The notes beneath the pieces were generated by a model that made no database searches, was not told the DNA's origin, and worked only from the letters and a program-made list of their open reading frames with translations. From Escherichia coli (lineage in GTDB: Bacteria; Pseudomonadota; Gammaproteobacteria; Enterobacterales; Enterobacteriaceae): a DNA stretch of 6,564 nt. The stretch lies in NCBI RefSeq assembly GCF_003334385.1, contig NZ_QOWN01000076.1, one strand, 5' to 3'. A program made the translations under genes and the position numbers. Below are positions 1 to 6,564 of this stretch, in pieces (the first letter of the stretch is position 1; each line of letters opens with the position of its first letter).

Positions 1-242
1 AACGCGAGGCATCGTCTTAACGAGGCACCGAGGCGTCGCATTCTTCAGATGGTTCAACCCTTAAGTTAGCGCTTATGGGACACACAGATTCATTTTGTCT
101 TTCTTCAGCAGCAAAATACACTGCGGTTATTATTTAACCATTAAATCAACAAAAAATTTTACCTCATATTGATTTGACTGCTATTTTTGCTATTAATAGC
201 CAGAATTGCAGTGCTTTTATATCTGTGTATAGTGAGGTTACT

Positions 243-1727
243 ATGTCATTCGGTCAGCCTTGTGATGAGTTTCCCCTGAGTTCGCTGCCTCCACTCATTC
301 GTGATGCCGTTATTGAAGCTCAGCAAATTACGCAGGCTCCCCTTGGGCTTGTGGCAGCGTCTGCCCTGGGCGCTGTTTCACTTGTCTGCCAGAATCTGAT
401 TGATGTCTGCAGACTGAATACACTGCGGGGGCCGGTCTCTCTTTTTTTCCTGACGCTTGCCGAGTCCGGAGAACGAAAAACCGCAGTGGACAAATTATTA
501 ATGAAGCCCCTGTACCAGCAGGAGATGCAGTTATATTCCAGATACAAAAGTGAACTGGCTGTCTGGAAAAACAAGGAAGAGCTTTTAAAGGCTCAGAAAA
601 AAGCATTGTTGTCAAAACTGAATAAAGAACTCCGCAAAGGCGCGGATGAGTCAGAAACCCTCAGACAACTGGAAGTACTTCAGAAAAACAGTGCGGAAGA
701 ACCTGTGAGGTATAAATTCATTTTTAATGATGCCACGACTGCGGCAATTAAGAATCAGCTTTGTGGTAAATGGCGTTCAGTTGGTATTATGTCAGATGAA
801 GCCGGTATTATATTTGATGGATATACCCTGTCTGAGTTGCCTTTTATTAACAAAATGTGGGATGGCTCTGTATTGTCTGTGGACAGAAAGAATGAACCCG
901 AACAGATGATTGAAAATGCCAGAATGACGTTATCCCTCATGGTGCAACCCGGTCTTTTTGACCGATATATGGAGCGAAAAGGTTCTGTTGCCAGGGACAG
1001 TGGTTTTCTTGCCCGTTGTCTTATCAGTAAACCTGCAACCACGCAGGGGAAACGCTTTATTAACGGAGCTGTGATTCCGGGAGGATCATTAACGGCATTT
1101 CATGAACGATTAATGGAACTGGCCAGAGGCAGTATTGAAAAATCCAGTGAGGATGAACGGTATTGTCTGCATTTTTCGCCTGAAGCGCAAAAAATATTTA
1201 TTGAGCACTATAATGTTCTGGAGCAGGATTTATCCCCTTCCGGACCCTTAAGCCCGTTTCGGGGACATGTTTCAAAAAAAACAGAAAACATTGCAAGAAT
1301 TGCAGCGTTATTTCAGTATTTCAGCTATGGTGAAGGGAAAATCTCTGCCGATATCATGACGTCTGCTGTCGTAATAAGTTCGTGGTACACAGATGAATAT
1401 AAAAAATTATTTGCGTTACCTGATGAATCTGAACTGCAGCAGAAGGACGCCGAGGAGCTGTTCGACTGGCTCATTGAGGAGTGCCGCGGAGAATGCCCGC
1501 CCCGTGTCAGGAAAAATTATATTCTCCAGTGTGGCCCGGGCCGGTTCAGAAACAGGAAAAAACTGAACGCATTGCTGAACATTCTTGAATCTCAGTTCAG
1601 GCTTTCTGTCGTGCCGGAAGGAAAAACCATGTATGTTCTGCTTCCCCAGATAGCCAGTTTAAAGTTGTCTGATGTCTCTGGTATTTTTACCTCGGGTTAT
1701 CACTACAATAAGCTGAGAGCGAAGTAA
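243..1727 (+). CDS. DUF3987-domain protein, YfjI-like (family associated with replication/primase modules of integrative elements and satellites)
   Basis: Long ORF 174..1727 in the track. TTG at 174 has no Shine-Dalgarno; ATG at 243 is preceded by GAGG (234..237) with a 5-nt spacer, so 243 is the preferred start (494 aa). The N-terminus reads EFPLSSLPPLIRDAVIEAQQITQAPLGLVAASALGAVSL, which matches my recollection of the DUF3987 N-terminal signature (F-P-x-x-x-L-P-x-x-L-R-D ... Q-x-P ... small-residue helix). No overlapping ORF is comparably long. Family assignment is from memory, not a search. Confidence 0.7.
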   Translation: MSFGQPCDEFPLSSLPPLIRDAVIEAQQITQAPLGLVAASALGAVSLVCQNLIDVCRLNTLRGPVSLFFLTLAESGERKTAVDKLLMKPLYQQEMQLYSRYKSELAVWKNKEELLKAQKKALLSKLNKELRKGADESETLRQLEVLQKNSAEEPVRYKFIFNDATTAAIKNQLCGKWRSVGIMSDEAGIIFDGYTLSELPFINKMWDGSVLSVDRKNEPEQMIENARMTLSLMVQPGLFDRYMERKGSVARDSGFLARCLISKPATTQGKRFINGAVIPGGSLTAFHERLMELARGSIEKSSEDERYCLHFSPEAQKIFIEHYNVLEQDLSPSGPLSPFRGHVSKKTENIARIAALFQYFSYGEGKISADIMTSAVVISSWYTDEYKKLFALPDESELQQKDAEELFDWLIEECRGECPPRVRKNYILQCGPGRFRNRKKLNALLNILESQFRLSVVPEGKTMYVLLPQIASLKLSDVSGIFTSGYHYNKLRAK

Positions 1728-1786
1728 CCGGTGAGCAGTTTTTCTCCATTATGCTTCAGACTTAGATGATTGATTATTATGGGGAT

Positions 1787-1826
1787 TTCATCACCGATAT
1801 TCAGATGTATGAATATCGGTGATGAA
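1787..1826. repeat. Perfect 17-bp inverted repeat (TTCATCACCGATATTCA / TGAATATCGGTGATGAA) with 6-nt spacer, in the convergent intergenic region
   Basis: Read directly: arms 1787..1803 and 1810..1826 are exact reverse complements, spacer GATGTA. It sits 60 nt after the stop of the 243..1727 gene. No T-run follows on either strand, so it is not a canonical intrinsic terminator. A third copy of the half-site GGTGATGAA occurs at 1850..1858. Confidence 0.85.
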
Positions 1827-2048
1827 CTAAAGCTCAGGAGCTGCATGGTGGTGATGAATCAACAGGCATATAACTGATACCCGCCGGTCAGAAGTTCCAG
1901 CCTGCGACTTTCCTGTCTGCGTGCCCGCAGTCCGGCGTTCAGGTGCAGCGTGTGACAGAACGCACGGAGAGCGAAACGGCAGGCAGACAGGCCGTTCAGT
2001 CAGCCCTGGCACCCTGCCCGGATACCAGCTTCCCTGAAACAACTGGCA

Positions 2049-2651
2049 TCAGGTGCGCTTATCGTCAACCGTTGTGCGGTATGACAGGAGCACGTACTGA
2101 TCCATCAGATCCGTCAGTGCTGCGCTCTGCTTCTGACGGTTGATGATCCATTCCTCCAGCTCTTTTTCTGATTTCCGTTTCAGATTCTCCGTCCAGTCGT
2201 CAAGGCAGTTTCCGGTCATTAAATCAAGCCAGCAAAGCCAGACTAGTTTGAGGCGCAACTCCGTGCCACCAAACTGACGGAAGAGGCTGATCAGTTTATT
2301 TGCCAGAGAACGCTGCCTCAGACGTTCACATTCAGACAGGAGAATGCCTTCCAGCATCGGATGATGAACCAGCAGATGTTCACTGGTGCATAAATTCACT
2401 ATCAGATCATCATCCAGGGGCGGTGTGGCCCGTTTGTCAGGGCCATAAATCAGCCGGTGCAGGCTCTGGGGTACGATGGCAATCTCCGGTTTTTCACCAT
2501 TGAATGACACCCAACCGGGCGTCAGATTATGGAAGTAGTAGATATTCGGATGACACACGCCCCAGGATACGGCGTGCCGGGTGAAGCCGGTCAGCCATTT
2601 CTGGTAGCTTTCGTGGAGCCATTCGTAGCGGGTCTGATACTGTTGTTTCAT
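2049..2651 (-). CDS. Hypothetical protein (about 200 aa), unrecognised family, co-directional and downstream of alpA
   Basis: ORF 2049..2666 on the minus strand. The annotated first codon is GTG; GAGG (complement of 2661..2664) lies 9 nt upstream of the ATG at 2651 and 3 nt upstream of the ATG at 2657, so I prefer 2651 (2657 possible). It starts 94 nt downstream of the alpA stop on the same strand, suggesting an operon. The protein has mixed composition with no low-complexity runs (e.g. GWVSFNGEKPEIAIVPQSLHRLIYGPDKR, LEEWIINRQKQSAALTDLMDQ). I do not recognise the family. Confidence 0.55.
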   Translation of the reverse strand: MKQQYQTRYEWLHESYQKWLTGFTRHAVSWGVCHPNIYYFHNLTPGWVSFNGEKPEIAIVPQSLHRLIYGPDKRATPPLDDDLIVNLCTSEHLLVHHPMLEGILLSECERLRQRSLANKLISLFRQFGGTELRLKLVWLCWLDLMTGNCLDDWTENLKRKSEKELEEWIINRQKQSAALTDLMDQYVLLSYRTTVDDKRT

Positions 2652-2745
2652 TTTCATATTCCTCACGGGGATATAACAGGCAGCAGAATGCCGCCGGCAG
2701 GCCGGAGATTACGTCTGCTGCGGGTGAACGGATAACGGTCAGAAA

Positions 2746-2952
2746 TTACGGACGGGACTGTGCAATACGCGCCTGCAGCCAGGCTTCCACTTCACTTTTC
2801 AGCCAGCGGGAGCTGCGCTCCATTTTGATGGGGGCAGGAAAGCCCCCATCTTTGATGAGTTTGTAAAACCACTTATCGGTTAAGCCGGTAAGTTGAGTGA
2901 TAAACGCCATGTCGACCATCTGGTCATCCATCAGCGAAACAGGGGTAGCCAT
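2746..2952 (-). CDS. alpA: AlpA-family (phage/integrative-element) transcriptional regulator / excisionase-like HTH protein, 68 aa
   Basis: The C-terminal 68 aa of ORF 2746..3186 read MATPVSLMDDQMVDMAFITQLTGLTDKWFYKLIKDGGFPAPIKMERSSRWLKSEVEAWLQARIAQSRP. The ATG at 2950..2952 (complement) is preceded by GGAGG (complement of about 2960..2964). The small size, helix-turn-helix-like core and the motif W-x-x-S-E-V-E-A-W-L resemble the E. coli AlpA C-terminus (W-I-E-A-E-I-D-E-W-L) as I recall it. The 78-codon upstream extension is Pro/Arg/Ser-rich and not protein-like. Confidence 0.75.
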   Translation of the reverse strand: MATPVSLMDDQMVDMAFITQLTGLTDKWFYKLIKDGGFPAPIKMERSSRWLKSEVEAWLQARIAQSRP

Positions 2953-3238
2953 GAGAATGTTCCTCCGGATGTTGTTAAACCAGCCGGTGTGGTCATGAAA
3001 ACAGCGCGCCACCTTCACTGGCATAACAACCGGGGAGAAACGTAAAAAATAATCGGGAATGTGGCTGTCCGGAGATAAACGGGGGGGATTGCGATGGCAG
3101 AGCCGTAGCGGAATCCCGGGTGGTTGTTGCGAAAAGATGCTTCCGCACGCACGCGCGATAAAGGAGGGAGGACTTTCGTGAGACAAGGGGAAAACTAGCG
3201 TTCTGATAATTGCAGAGTTGTTTTCGGAGGTGGTTACA

Positions 3239-3358
3239 GTGAGTCAGCCCGTTCCTGGCGAGGAGGAGACTGATATCACCGATGGGATAAGGCTGTCTGA
3301 TTGGTATTATAAATATAAGAAGTCATCAGAGAGTAACGTAAAGGATTTGCCAGAGTAA
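3239..3358 (+). CDS. Candidate small ORF (39 aa, MSQPVPGEEETDITDGIRLSDWYYKYKKSSESNVKDLPE), divergent from alpA; speculative
   Basis: GTG at 3239 with GGAGG (3226..3230) 8 nt upstream, in-frame stop TAA at 3356..3358. It is below the ORF-track size cutoff. No homology is recognised, and a short ORF next to a good SD can arise by chance. Confidence 0.2.
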   Translation: MSQPVPGEEETDITDGIRLSDWYYKYKKSSESNVKDLPE

Positions 3359-3399
3359 GCTAAGAGAGTAAATCTCTCCGGTAACAGAGCGCTGTGAAT

Positions 3400-3431
3400 C
3401 GTTCATGTATCAGAGTGCAAATACATGAACG
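3400..3431. repeat. 11-bp inverted repeat (CGTTCATGTAT / ATACATGAACG) with 10-nt spacer; candidate operator or RNA hairpin
   Basis: Read directly: 3400..3410 and 3421..3431 are exact reverse complements. There is no adjacent T-run on either strand. The arm sequence ATACATGAAC recurs at 4156..4165. Confidence 0.8.
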
Positions 3432-4155
3432 CTGATGCGTAAAATCAGCAGTGACACGCCAGCTCCCCCTGTGCCCATTCCTGTATAAGACATGAACTGA
3501 GCGTATTAATGCTCCTGCTCTGAGACTGAGCCGGTGAGTGAGGGGCTGAGAAATCCCTCTTGACACAGCTCTAAACCAGAAATACTTCCCCGGTTGTTGC
3601 GGTGCGTCCGGATCCCCGATAACGGAACACTAAGGCTGTATTGCGGGACACCGGGTAAGTGGCAGCCTGTAATGTGTTCTGTCAACGCCAGAAAAAATGA
3701 TTTTTCACACGCGTTATAGACTCACTCCTGTGGACCTGGAAGCCCGTAACTCTGCGGTTGCCCACCGACTGACGGAACTGACCGCAAACTTTACGATCGT
3801 GTTCCTGCTTCCTTCTGGTCACCTGAACTTTTAGCCAGCGCTACGATAAGTCCGGTGTTATCTGCACCGGAGGACCGGGAACATTAAGCGGTATAGCGAC
3901 AACAAAGAATTCGAAATCAAAAGGGAATGGTGCCGGAGGCGTGGGCGGTAATAGGCTGATTTTCAGGTATTACCGGCTTACAACGTGTGGTTGATATTGA
4001 GGGGCTGTGAGTTTCGCGTATTTGTCAGAAACCCAGATGAGTTTTCCTTTATGGGACGAAATAAGGCAGCGGCAATACCTGGAAAAATTTAATATGGTAT
4101 GAAGGAGAACCTGTCGGTTACGCTTAATATACACGGTACACTGTCAGCTCAGGGG

Positions 4156-4165
4156 ATACATGAAC
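4156..4165. repeat. Additional direct copy of the 10-mer ATACATGAAC (same as 3421..3430), just downstream of the zinc-ribbon gene stop
   Basis: Exact 10-mer match read from the sequence. A related 8-mer ACATGAAC is at 3490..3497. Chance recurrence of a given 10-mer in 6.5 kb is unlikely but not negligible. Confidence 0.5.
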
Positions 4166-4172
4166 CGTTATC

Positions 4173-4373
4173 TCACCAGCTACACAGTATACACACACTG
4201 ACGCTGACAGTAGTCAGCAGGACCACAATAATCAGCGCCAGCAGTATGGTAACGATACGGTCTGTATTCCGGTAGTAGCCGAAGGGGTCGACAGAACCAC
4301 AATACGGGCAACACACTGTATTATGAGTAATCGCGTTTCCACAGTCCCTGCACTTCTTTTTGCGTATCACCAT
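4173..4373 (-). CDS. Small zinc-ribbon protein with C-terminal transmembrane helix (66 aa)
   Basis: ORF 4173..4376 on the minus strand. The preferred start is the ATG at 4371..4373 (complement), with GAGGAGGGAG immediately upstream (AGGAGG about 5 nt before the ATG). The protein has two CxxC-type pairs (CRDCG ... CCPYCG) followed by a hydrophobic stretch IVTILLALIIVVLLTTVSVSVCILC. It is divergent from the YagK-like gene across a 200-bp AT-rich intergenic region. Confidence 0.5.
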   Translation of the reverse strand: MVIRKKKCRDCGNAITHNTVCCPYCGSVDPFGYYRNTDRIVTILLALIIVVLLTTVSVSVCILCSW

Positions 4374-4545
4374 CACTCCCTCCTCACAGCCTTACCCGTA
4401 ACCGATTTTTTACATTAAAAAAACAACGCTGAAAATTCAACCGTCAGTCCGGAGACGACCGTTCGGGTTATCACAGAGTGCCTGAGACAGTGTCCTGCCG
4501 GAGGTCACCTCAGGGGCTCTGCGCATTTTTTACGACGTGGTTATT

Positions 4546-4562
4546 CCGTATGAACCATACGG
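4546..4562. promoter_or_regulatory. 17-bp perfect palindrome CCGTATGAACCATACGG overlapping the Shine-Dalgarno of the YagK/YfjJ-like gene
   Basis: Read directly: 4546..4552 (CCGTATG) and 4556..4562 (CATACGG) are reverse complements with a 3-nt centre. The right arm overlaps GGAG (4561..4564), which is the SD for the ATG at 4573. It could be a dimeric-regulator site or an RNA hairpin occluding the RBS. Confidence 0.4.
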
Positions 4563-4572
4563 AGATTTAACC

Positions 4573-5142
4573 ATGACCTACAAATACAACCCCTTCTGGC
4601 AGCAACGTATTCGTGAGACGGTGCGGCACGCACTGAATGTTCATCCCCGCCTGACGGCATTGCGGGTTGACCTGCGTCTCCCGGATGTACCGGCAGCAAC
4701 GGACGCAGCTGTGATATCCCGCTTCATCAATGCCCTGAAAGCCCGAATCGACGCTTACCAGAAACGTAAGCATCGGGAAGGTAAACGCGTGCATCCCACA
4801 ACCCTGCATTACGTCTGGGCCCGGGAGTTTGGGGAGTGCAAAGGTAAAAAACACTATCACCTGATGCTGCTGGTCAACCGGGATACCTGGTGTCGTGCCG
4901 GTGATTACCGCGCTCCGGAGTCTCTGGCCGGGATGATTAAACAGGCGTGGTGCAGTGCCCTGGGAGTGGATGTCGGGTGCCATGCCACGCTGGTGCATTT
5001 TCCGGCCTGGCCGGCGGTGTGGCTGGCGCGTAATGATGACACCGGCTTTCAGCAAGTGCTGGAACGTGCTGACTATCTGGCGAAGGAGCATACCAAAGCT
5101 CACTGCACCGGTGAGCGCAATTTTGGCTGTAGCCGGAGTTGA
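4573..5142 (+). CDS. YagK/YfjJ-family (inovirus Gp2-like) protein with HUH-like and YxxK-like motifs, 189 aa
   Basis: ORF 4537..5142 begins with GTG; the ATG at 4573 has GGAG (4561..4564) 8 nt upstream, so 4573 is preferred. The N-terminus YKYNPFWQQRIRETVRHALNVHPRLTALRVDLRLP matches my recollection of the YagK/YfjJ family. HYH followed by LMLLVN (HYH at 4852..4860) is an HUH-type motif, and YLAK lies near the C-terminus. The long antisense ORF 4567..5436 is rejected as GC-driven. Confidence 0.7.
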   Translation: MTYKYNPFWQQRIRETVRHALNVHPRLTALRVDLRLPDVPAATDAAVISRFINALKARIDAYQKRKHREGKRVHPTTLHYVWAREFGECKGKKHYHLMLLVNRDTWCRAGDYRAPESLAGMIKQAWCSALGVDVGCHATLVHFPAWPAVWLARNDDTGFQQVLERADYLAKEHTKAHCTGERNFGCSRS

Positions 5143-5219
5143 GCACGACTGGCGCGCCAATATCCGGCAAACCAAAAGTATGGGTTGTTGTCTGGCGGCA
5201 ACGATGTATCCACTCGCCC

Positions 5220-5243
5220 ACTGACTGTTTTTTACGTCAGTGT
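5220..5243 (+). other. Possible hairpin (CACTGAC / GTCAGTG, 7-bp stem, 10-nt T-rich loop) in the intergenic region after the YagK-like gene
   Basis: Read directly. The T-run is inside the loop rather than after the stem, so terminator function is uncertain. Confidence 0.25.
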
Positions 5244-5395
5244 TCCATTGTGTGACAACCACAGTGCTGTAACAGCAACCAGCCTGCTTTACCCAAACTC
5301 CAGTCCAGATTTTAACTGAACCGCCATTCACACCCTGACCACGCTGCCCGTACCGGGACGGCTGTTGCCTGCGTGTCGTCTGGCGGCTGAGGTAT

Positions 5396-5803
5396 ATGAC
5401 TATGTACGCAAAATCCTTTATCGCTCTTGATGGCAACGGACGTCTGACGGGCGCCCGTACTGCACAGGCCGCACCTTATGCTAACTACACCTGCCACTTG
5501 TGTGGCAGTGCACTCAGATACCATCCGCAATACGAAACTGAACTTCCCTGGTTTGAACACACTGACGACAGGCTGACAGAGCACGGTCAACAGTGCCCTT
5601 ATGTCAGGCCGGAGCGCAGAGAAATACAGTTGATTAAACGTCTGCAGCAATTCGTACCGGATGCCTTACCCGTGGTGCGTAAAGCCAGCTGGCACTGCAG
5701 ACAATGTCACCACGATTATTATGGGGAGCAGTACTGCACACACTGCCAGACCGGAGGATTCAGTATTCCCCGGACAACTCAGGAGGAAATATGCGAATTC
5801 TGA
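5396..5803 (+). CDS. Cys-rich putative zinc-binding protein, paralog A (135 aa), unrecognised family
   Basis: ORF 5396..5803. GAGG (5389..5392) precedes the ATG at 5396 by 3 nt and the ATG at 5402 by 9 nt, so the start is one of the two. It contains CHLCG ... PWFEH ... W-H-C-R-Q-C-H-H-D-Y-Y-G-E-Q-Y-C-T-H-C-Q-T-G, and aligns along its length with the downstream protein. Confidence 0.6.
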   Translation: MTMYAKSFIALDGNGRLTGARTAQAAPYANYTCHLCGSALRYHPQYETELPWFEHTDDRLTEHGQQCPYVRPERREIQLIKRLQQFVPDALPVVRKASWHCRQCHHDYYGEQYCTHCQTGGFSIPRTTQEEICEF

Positions 5804-6225
5804 ACTGTTATATGGCGAATGACAGCAAAGGCCATTTTGTTACGGCGAAAGAAGCTGCGAAGCACAACCGACAGGACGTTTTGTGCTGTGTGTCCTGTGG
5901 ATGCCCGTTAACACTTCAGCGGGGCAATGACGGACAACCACCGTGGTTTGAACATGACCAGATGACTGTCGCTGAAAAAATCCTGCTGCGATGTACCTGG
6001 CTTGACCCGGCAGAGAAAGAGGCCCGTCGTTTGCATCTGCAGGGCATGACGGTTCCGGATTATACGGTGAAGGTGAGAAAGTGGTTTTGTGTGATGTGTG
6101 ACGAAGATTATGAGGGGGAAAAGTGCTGCCCACGCTGCGGTACCGGGGTATACAGCAGGGCGTGGGGGCGGCAGGAGGTGCCGTCGGAAGATGCCAGGGC
6201 TGATAATCCGTTACAGAGGCTGTAA
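5791..6225 (+). CDS. Cys-rich putative zinc-binding protein, paralog B (144 aa), translationally coupled to paralog A
   Basis: The ATG at 5791 has a strong AGGAGG (5781..5786) 4 nt upstream and overlaps the last 13 nt of paralog A (stop 5801..5803). The ORF-track start at 5704 is an unsupported extension. It contains CCVSCGC ... PPWFEH ... W-F-C-V-M-C-D-E-D-Y-E-G-E-K-C-C-P-R-C-G-T-G. Confidence 0.6.
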   Translation: MRILNCYMANDSKGHFVTAKEAAKHNRQDVLCCVSCGCPLTLQRGNDGQPPWFEHDQMTVAEKILLRCTWLDPAEKEARRLHLQGMTVPDYTVKVRKWFCVMCDEDYEGEKCCPRCGTGVYSRAWGRQEVPSEDARADNPLQRL

Positions 6226-6461
6226 TGGTTGCCTCCGGAGCAGTTTGCGGTGATGCCTTTCCCGGGAATGGATTGCCGGTGCGGGGACTGTGGAGCTTAA
6301 TTCCGGTGTTGGTGGCCTTTCCGTTGATTTTATGCCAACAGCCCCCTGTGACTGACAGGCTGCCTCGTCATTCCATTCGTATCTCCAGTAACAGGGGGTT
6401 GTATTGTATTTTATTGTGCCGGTTCAGGTGTGCGTTTCCCGGCGCGTCTGCACCGGCTTAA
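6225..6461 (+). CDS. Possible small protein (78 aa) whose ATG overlaps the paralog B stop (TAATG); low confidence
   Basis: ATG at 6225..6227 overlaps TAA at 6223..6225, with GAGG (6216..6219) 5 nt upstream. The protein is Pro/Gly/Leu/Arg-rich with one hydrophobic stretch (LWSLIPVLVAFPLIL) and could equally be a GC-driven artefact. Confidence 0.2.
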   Translation: MVASGAVCGDAFPGNGLPVRGLWSLIPVLVAFPLILCQQPPVTDRLPRHSIRISSNRGLYCILLCRFRCAFPGASAPA

Positions 6462-6564
6462 CCAAATTCAACAGGGATAAAATAGTGGTAAGCGTACAGC
6501 CTGAACCGTCTGGTCAGAATCTGACGAATTAGACAAAGTGGTGTCCACCAAATAAGTAGTGGGA

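Follow-up and report, generated by a model that had tools for sequence, protein, structure and literature searches.

The DNA stretch considered here (hereafter the window) is 6,564 nt of Escherichia coli sequence (contig NZ_QOWN01000076.1 of assembly GCF_003334385.1) carrying a gene for a 68-aa AlpA-family regulator (alpA, 2746-2952, minus strand), a gene on the same strand for a 200-aa protein (2049-2651) and, convergent with the latter, a YfjI-family (DUF3987) gene on the plus strand (243-1727). The 200-aa open reading frame (ORF) downstream of alpA, which we call X, was deposited as Aec62 or "hypothetical" (RefSeq WP_000813451.1) and is the subject of this work. X is separated from alpA by 94 bp (2652-2745) and from yfjI by 321 bp, and all three genes are intact.

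The window comes from a chromosomal island of E. coli. Several complete genomes of the species contain positions 77-6564 at 100% identity, and at least 80% of the whole window was present in 969 of the 5426 that were searched. We used the RefSeq annotation of an identical copy in strain A12 (locus L001; the window coordinate corresponds to the L001 coordinate minus 14924), which was concordant with the ORF list of the window on yfjI, X and alpA. Together with Pfam, these sources confirmed the gene coordinates, strands and content of a preliminary description of this DNA, in which alpA and the 200-aa ORF shared a strand and the DUF3987 gene was convergent.

The 68-aa protein, annotated by RefSeq as a coding sequence, is a winged helix-turn-helix (HTH) regulator of the excisionase type. 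It was assigned to the AlpA family by significant profile matches to Phage_AlpA (PF05930, E = 3.9e-7 over residues 12-59) and HTH_17 (PF12728, E = 2e-5), and it also matched PHROG 66, "excisionase and transcriptional regulator" (E = 4.5e-9). The YfjI-family protein matched DUF3987 at full length (PF13148, E = 1.6e-95, model positions 1-363 of 364) and PHROG 2373, "DNA helicase" (E = 5.5e-82), and was 52.7% identical to K-12 YfjI over 465 aa.

Protein X and its family

Even with permissive thresholds, X had no match in Pfam, NCBIfam, PHROGs or PADLOC, and the same was true of the 42 members of its alignment, scanned one by one, and of six distant relatives. Profiles of X, for which alignments of 30 and of 42 sequences were tried, returned only noise when searched against the sequences of all PDB chains. 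The AlphaFold model obtained from close relatives was mediocre (predicted local distance difference test, pLDDT, 70.9), while the AlphaFold2 (AF2) model obtained with distant members added was confident (pLDDT 85.9, predicted template modelling score 0.85). From the N-terminus, it comprises a long helix, a beta-hairpin (residues 43-61), a variable loop (70-90), which is shorter in distant family members, and a seven-helix bundle (91-190). A structural search with this model gave no neighbour outside X's own family, so that the preliminary statement that the protein fits no family was borne out by profile and structure searches, which found neither a curated family nor a known fold.

Among the relatives of X, the E. 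coli protein Aec62 (UniProt Q5K5T0) is 98% identical and has a predicted structure equal to that of X (Foldseek E = 8.6e-29, template modelling score 0.94); it presumably comes from an avian-pathogenic E. coli island. Aec62 is an ORF label only; a full-text literature search found no paper using "Aec62" or "aec-62", and literature searches on Aec62 and on the island module described below found no functional study of X. Other relatives go under "secretoglobin family protein" in NCBI and under "malate transporter" in UniRef; no model in the current NCBIfam or Pfam backs either name, and both look like propagated mis-annotations.

The homologues of X are 174-204 aa long and were aligned end to end down to about 25% identity. 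The residues Y16, Q17, L43, P61, L64, G102, L104, S106, E107, C108 and R110 were invariant, and so were L120, L139, C140, W141 and Y186. Pairwise ratios of nonsynonymous to synonymous substitution rates (dN/dS) were between 0.09 and 0.37; X is under purifying selection. These data bear on the possibility, raised in the preliminary description, that the ORF is a pseudogene fragment and, more generally, that it is decayed, spurious or an annotation artefact. This could be suspected of a gene annotated only as "hypothetical" that has many truncated copies in the databases, but full-length conservation in dozens of genera, dN/dS values well below 1, the confident AF2 model and a conserved Shine-Dalgarno sequence and start codon reduce its probability to a practically negligible level. 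X is a genuine protein, soluble and for the most part alpha-helical; it belongs to an orphan family restricted to Enterobacterales, in which the median isoelectric point is close to neutral (6.7).

As regards distribution, the family is small: at 50% identity, 1.84 billion proteins yielded 124 representatives of it, including many fragments, and X was found at 38 loci in a scan of 100,044 species, one genome each. All the taxonomically named loci of these 38 were from Enterobacterales, and no homologue outside this order was found among 1.8 billion representative proteins or the 100,044 species genomes. Two metagenome-assembled genomes labelled Bacillota and Clostridiales (loci L030 and L031) carry this island module, typical of enterobacteria, in an unchanged gene order, their X being about 62% identical to that of the window; they are likely mis-binned enterobacterial contigs. 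In phages, X was found in one 3.6-kb record of 50,697, and it was in essentially no genuine plasmids, an absence on which we rejected X as a gene of P4, of phage-inducible chromosomal islands (PICIs) or of plasmids. We also considered X as a diverged piece of YfjI or YfjH, as it takes the place of YfjI after alpA, and discarded this candidate because the hhalign probability was below 1%. No counterpart among the K-12 "y-genes" was found in CP4-57, CP4-6 or the first 26 kb of KpLE2, CP4-44 and the remaining chromosome being outside this search.

The alpA-X pair within the island backbone

The preliminary description considered the alpA-X order a non-canonical pairing, by comparison with CP4-57, in which alpA lies directly upstream of yfjI on the same strand. 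The comparison agrees with the K-12 gene order, but the frequencies are the reverse of what it suggested. The alpA-X segment (with at least 80% coverage) was present in 3368 of the 5426 complete E. coli genomes, about 60%, at a median of two places per genome, whereas the K-12-type alpA-yfjI junction was present in 400, mostly K-12 derivatives. The convergent arrangement of YfjI, X and AlpA is itself common and occurred in 1150 complete E. coli genomes. It is kept in diverged versions, in which the order is GTPase (-), YfjI (+), X (-), AlpA (-) and Hha (+), continuing with a small ORF (-), Gp2 (+) and two successive zinc-ribbon genes (both +).

The neighbours of X were counted as the ORFs within 4 kb of it at 39 loci, represented by 32 of the 38 loci of the species scan, six others and the window. 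AlpA was present at 38 of the 39 loci and lay on the same strand, immediately upstream of X, at 37, with a median gap of 103 bp between the end of alpA and the start of X. These loci were from Escherichia, Salmonella, Klebsiella, Yersinia, Serratia, Hafnia, Photorhabdus, Providencia, Brenneria, Kluyvera and other genera. Two clusters of Gp2-like ORFs were near X at 25 and 20 loci, respectively, zinc-ribbon genes at 18, and a GTPase, invariably on the opposite strand, at 24; the rest of the 16 most widespread neighbour clusters were short antisense ORFs or other opposite-strand backbone genes. Among these loci a YfjI homologue adjoined X only in the window and its identical copy in A12.

The islands that hold the X homologues of Yersinia ruckeri, Klebsiella, other E. 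coli and Salmonella were all of one kind, with X running in the direction of an AlpA gene, a Gp2-like gene and, in most cases, DUF7828 zinc-ribbon genes. The set of AlpA, X, Gp2-like and zinc-ribbon genes recurs in several orders and is always co-directional outside the E. coli clade. In the window, the corresponding genes are on the plus strand: the YagK/YfjJ ("inovirus Gp2") family gene (4573-5142), divergent from alpA, with Pfam matches to YagK_YfjJ_C (E = 4.8e-48) and REP_ORF2-G2P (E = 3.3e-5), and two overlapping genes (5402-5803 and 5791-6225) annotated by RefSeq as "putative zinc ribbon protein", the homologues of which bear PF25165 (DUF7828) and PF11682 (Zn_ribbon_11). Next to X, in the islands of the hosts named above, lies an arm of opposite orientation that carries GTPase, YfjS/YafY, IrmA, DUF932, antirestriction, RadC and CbeA/CbtA genes.

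The slot beyond the AlpA, X, Gp2-like and zinc-ribbon module is a cargo hotspot (loci L002-L014). It holds a Dnd/DndB-type system in Y. ruckeri, BREX with GmrSD in Klebsiella, a cluster of SNF2 helicase, AAA, S8-peptidase and methyltransferase genes or else chaperone-usher fimbriae in E. coli, and a type I restriction-modification or LlaJI-type restriction system in Salmonella; iron uptake is also among the variable cargo of the islands carrying X. A limit of the module was given by the E. coli islands lacking YfjI, in which nucleotide similarity to the window begins at position 2033 or 2065, that is, within 16 bp either side of the X stop codon at 2049. Hence, X marks the border of a conserved module, and yfjI is outside the block shared with these islands.

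The surroundings of the window in A12 correspond to the backbone set of SRL pathogenicity island (PAI) and CP4-44 elements, i.e. a YeeP-like GTPase, Ag43, DUF932, antirestriction, RadC and CbeA/CbtA, which is also present in Klebsiella, Yersinia, Salmonella and other E. coli; the A12 region round the window carries, in addition, fec, a phytase-like esterase and IS66. The window is therefore part of an integrative E. coli island of SRL-PAI/CP4-44 type. No integrase was found in the window or within 15 kb of it in A12, whose flanks are rich in insertion sequences (ISs), while an IntA-like gene was 6 kb from X at locus L049, and an IntA-like gene together with tRNA-SeC was 4-6 kb from X in Providencia stuartii (L047). 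Hallmarks of phage satellites, which are the alpha primase-helicase and sid/psu/delta/epsilon for P4 and a primase-replicase with packaging or redirecting genes for PICIs, were absent from PHROG scans of seven window proteins, which returned only AlpA, YfjI and unknown families.

X is duplicated in some of these islands. Locus L012 has tandem copies after alpA (7273-7848 and 8001-8525), the first of which scored 218 bits against the hidden Markov model of the family; L021 has two paralogues (7001-7579 and 10073-10591), and second copies, full or partial, were seen in L021 and in L034-L037. Where an island encodes two diverged paralogues, these are either in tandem behind alpA or split, with one behind alpA and one behind the zinc-ribbon genes. 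A Salmonella subfamily about 30% identical to X is placed after the zinc-ribbon genes and not directly after alpA. This suggests that two subfamilies of X exist, one alpA-adjacent and one distal, which may be functionally distinct, and such paralogy fits a factor with diversifying specificity.

On these grounds X is very probably a backbone gene of the island coupled to alpA, and not cargo. The preliminary description had regarded it as novel cargo, but X travels with the AlpA, Gp2-like, zinc-ribbon and GTPase backbone, and the variable cargo lies beyond. The alternative closest to that view is that X has an accessory function, such as defence, phage interference, anti-defence or manipulation of a helper, that comes into play once AlpA has activated the element. 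X does lie downstream of an AlpA-type regulator in islands that are vehicles for defence systems, the opposite backbone arm has antirestriction- and RadC-type "establishment" genes, diverged paralogues can occur in one island, as they do for factors that diversify in specificity, and an orphan family leaves room for a conserved anti-defence or interference role. Nevertheless, X keeps its position and its sequence across islands with wholly different cargo, the conserved block ends right after it, neither X nor six diverse relatives had a PADLOC match, and its near-universal presence beside alpA is the behaviour of a backbone gene and not of swappable cargo. We consequently hold the accessory function to be quite improbable. 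As to PADLOC, AlpA itself had a weak, sub-threshold similarity, at HTH level, to MADS1 (E about 2e-3, 16 bits). What stands of the preliminary description on this point is an unplaced protein behind an element regulator; the framing as an unusual pairing with novel cargo falls.

The rest of the window contains a gene for a small 66-aa protein (4173-4373, minus strand), present in both the RefSeq annotation and the ORF list, and two decayed genes on the plus strand in the 1.6-kb interval between alpA and the Gp2-like gene. One of these (3127-3355) matches a 77-aa hypothetical protein as two out-of-frame pieces, and the other (3691-3818) is a frameshifted remnant of an Hha/YmoA-family gene, of which related islands have intact copies. 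At 1787-1826, 60 nt past the yfjI stop codon, there is a perfect 17-bp inverted repeat (TTCATCACCGATATTCA / TGAATATCGGTGATGAA) with a 6-nt loop; it is also present past yfjI in the diverged island L059, not in L058, and it is possibly the terminator of yfjI. The first 84 or so positions of the window are the end of a multi-copy element, found on chromosomes and plasmids at a median of 3 places per genome and up to 23. In a K-12 genome this sequence directly follows the transposase gene of the IS4-like IS421 (IS186-type), upstream of lon. As these positions match an IS end, in the source genome the island is bordered by an IS some 160 bp upstream of yfjI; the closest database genomes differ in this respect.

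Conserved elements upstream of X and of alpA

The spacer between alpA and X is 94 bp long in the window and 93-142 bp elsewhere, and it mostly diverges freely. In spacer alignments (up to 36 spacers), three features were conserved in about 30 lineages. The first is an inverted repeat, UCCGN-N5-N'CGGA, which in the window gives an inner hairpin (CCGG at 2705-2702 with CCGG at 2697-2694) enclosed by an outer helix (2721-2714 with 2687-2680). At the pair that closes the inner loop, all four Watson-Crick forms occur across lineages (GC 16, CG 9, AU 1, UA 1), and 91% of the cells of the repeat were paired, versus 81.5% in shuffles and 28-63% with slid partner columns. The second is a box, (C/G)GCUGCCUG(U/A), of which the window copy is GCTGCCTGT (2684-2676) and the core GCTGCC is invariant. 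The third is X's own AAGGAAUA Shine-Dalgarno sequence, 5-9 nt before the ATG, which is GAGGAA in the window (2664-2659) and AAGGAA in its conserved form; the start codon is conserved as well. The GCTGCCTG box and the nested stem-loop, or palindrome, are just upstream of the ribosome-binding site of X.

When spacers were folded one at a time, the box paired through its 5' part with a clade-specific segment upstream (GCAGCAG, UGACAGGCAG, GCCGU). The nested two-helix topology was obtained in 11 of 12 representatives, with z values from -1.2 to -3.3, the spacer of Y. ruckeri being the exception. RNAalifold returned the inner hairpin only, because the 5' strand of the outer helix is out of register between clades, and the support for the outer helix comes from the single-sequence folds. 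No Rfam family was matched in the window. A leader peptide encoded in the spacer (CTG/TTG CCT GTx ATT TAA) was considered and rejected, since neither the reading frame nor the stop is conserved, e.g. in L006.

The leader of alpA (2953-3052, minus strand), a promoter-like region, was conserved across genera in an alignment of 34 related loci. It has an invariant box made of a T-run followed by AC about 100 nt upstream of the ATG (about 3049-3042) and a motif, TGT-TATGCC (3028-3020) in the window and TGn-TATGCC across loci, which could be an extended -10 element. Closer to the gene there is an inverted repeat, CTCCGG...CCGGAG, pairing CCGG at 2987-2984 with CCGG at 2968-2965, which overlaps the Shine-Dalgarno sequence GGAGG (2966-2962) and is predicted to sequester it. 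Its arms vary to CTCCTG/CAGGAG in Providencia and CTCCC/GGGAG in Salmonella. The pair counts give this repeat modest support (79% of cells were paired, and in a few cases both sides had changed), and RNAalifold found no consensus structure for the leader.

We read the conserved spacer element, whether an RNA structure or a palindromic operator with its box, as tying the expression of X to events at alpA, and co-transcription of the two genes as plausible. The coupling is suggested by a spacer that is short and conserved, with the hairpin and the box directly upstream of the X ribosome-binding site. Alternatively, X could be transcribed separately, with the spacer acting as a promoter and operator under the control of AlpA or another factor. 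In this case, the palindrome (TCCGN-N5-N'CGGA at DNA level) would cover the -35 position, with a TGT(A/C)ATTT-like sequence serving as the -10. An inverted repeat could be a dimer-binding DNA site, the symmetric covarying position would fit an operator equally well, a similar CCGG...CCGGAG repeat occurs in the alpA leader, and the box is conserved as sequence even where its pairing partners differ. Conversely, a generic sigma-70 scan found no promoter in the spacer, and the G-U pairs and clade-specific 5' strands of the outer helix fit RNA better. We judge separate transcription to be somewhat improbable; it is compatible with the explanation favoured below, and would alter only the mode of coupling between X and alpA, leaving the identity of X unaffected.

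The spacer is also relevant to the idea that alpA and X are a type II toxin-antitoxin (TA)-like addiction pair stabilising the island, with the HTH protein as antitoxin and repressor and X as toxin. A small DNA-binding gene followed by a larger orphan gene resembles the type II order, X is rarely found without AlpA, and these islands already carry CbtA/CbeA. Against this, a structured spacer of 93-142 bp differs from the overlap, or the few bases, of such pairs, paralogues of the distal (X2) type are away from alpA while two X genes can follow one alpA, X resembles no toxin family or fold, and AlpA-family proteins have documented roles in excision and regulation (PMC11773190). An addiction pair thus appears very improbable.

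Known islands and the proposed role of X

In the CP4-57 element of K-12 the order is intA, yfjH (-), alpA, yfjI, yfjJ. As in the window, an AlpA-family regulator heads a series of co-directional genes for island maintenance that includes a YagK/YfjJ (Gp2-like) gene, and the element shares with the window's island the YfjP/YeeP GTPase, DUF932, antirestriction, RadC and a CbtA-type TA system. In CP4-57, however, alpA is followed by yfjI, whereas here it is followed by X, with yfjI convergent beyond it. A similar order is found in the SRL PAI of Shigella flexneri, where orf39 (YfjJ/Gp2-like), orf40 (Hha/YmoA), orf41 (Vis/AlpA) and orf42 ("no similarity") are followed by orf46 (YeeP GTPase) and orf47 (Ag43), and which carries fec, a phytase-like esterase and IS66 as the A12 region does; the table of orf38-orf47 (Luck et al. 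2001) is reproduced in PMC6980539. We equate orf42 with X by its position, not by sequence. Unlike the window, the SRL PAI has other "no similarity" ORFs, and not YfjI, between the position of X and the GTPase. The gene and its arrangement have thus long been in databases and in print, since the description of the SRL PAI, and always as "hypothetical" or "no similarity".

AlpA-family proteins drive the excision and induction of CP4-57 and of the PICIs of Gram-negative bacteria, and in the latter an AlpA-family gene near the integrase end is positively autoregulated and controls both excision and the downstream operon (PMC11773190). The island of the window has a CP4/SRL-type backbone and differs from PICIs, as the window has no primase/replicase, packaging or capsid-redirecting genes and X is absent from phage collections. 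To our knowledge, no helper phage exists for the islands bearing X. A core set of IntY, AlpA, inovirus Gp2-like protein and RadC, with variable defence cargo, has been proposed for the tmRNA-linked islands of Pseudomonas (PMC12595487); these resemble the X islands in this core set, in a different genus, and no X homologue was found outside Enterobacterales. Finally, the AlpA antiterminator of P. aeruginosa is a larger, Q-like protein of eight helices, with DNA-contact residues 128-142 (PMC9371919). It shares with the AlpA of the window only the name and the broad notion of a small regulator that lets transcription pass a hairpin, and we rejected its antitermination mechanism for the spacer hairpin, as it is a different, larger protein compared with the 68-aa Phage_AlpA-family one.

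A confident match of the 200-aa protein to a known core function of such elements was, in the preliminary description, an outcome that would count against its reading: homology provided none, while by synteny X behaves as a core element gene. Taken together, we moderately favour the explanation that X is a core backbone gene of SRL/CP4-44-type islands, the fixed partner of alpA, which serves the programme of the island. X would be made together with AlpA, or under its control, and would act in the island's own programme, i.e. in induction, in excision or in replication and transfer, alongside the Gp2-like protein (rolling-circle-initiator-like, nickase-type) and the zinc-ribbon proteins. Its activity would probably be that of a regulator or adaptor that binds other proteins, and not that of any known class of enzyme, and, we infer, it would not be an accessory trait such as defence. 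For a role of X in the life cycle of the island, considered by itself, belief and doubt are about equal.

Several observations weigh against this explanation. The role in the island programme is read from the gene neighbourhood, and both co-transcription with alpA and dependence on AlpA are presumed from the arrangement of the sequence. Neither the sequence nor the model of X has an obvious DNA-binding or catalytic signature. A weak terminator-like hairpin is present in the spacer, in the window only, so that X could have its own promoter. In L010 and L021 the second X subfamily is several genes away from alpA, and in L013/L014 alpA is on the opposite strand from X; adjacency to alpA is hence not obligatory for X. 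Moreover, other AlpA/Vis/Xis-type proteins, such as the AlpA of CP4-57, function without an X-like partner, and therefore X is not a general cofactor of these proteins.

A bolder version, to which we give low credence, is that AlpA, the structured spacer and X are a dedicated switch timing the activity of the commonest defence and virulence islands of Enterobacterales. In such a switch X might be a regulator or adaptor of unseen fold that senses or engages a helper element, or that partners the nickase-type Gp2-like protein, and the hairpin of the spacer, as a new cis-regulatory RNA, would gate the synthesis of X.

With regard to annotation, these results indicate that the alpA-yfjI arrangement of K-12 is the minority case and that the names "secretoglobin" and "malate transporter" are unfounded. 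What is added here is that X belongs to a distinct family without a known fold, that it is linked to alpA in an arrangement far commoner than that of K-12, and that conserved cis elements lie alongside. Most E. coli genomes carry SRL/CP4-44-type islands, frequently more than one copy of them, and in related genera these islands bear BREX, Dnd and restriction systems, adhesins and iron uptake, while their activation, excision and movement are poorly understood. Since X is strictly linked to alpA and under purifying selection, and has no known family or fold, it is an evident, though overlooked, candidate for a part in the control of these islands.

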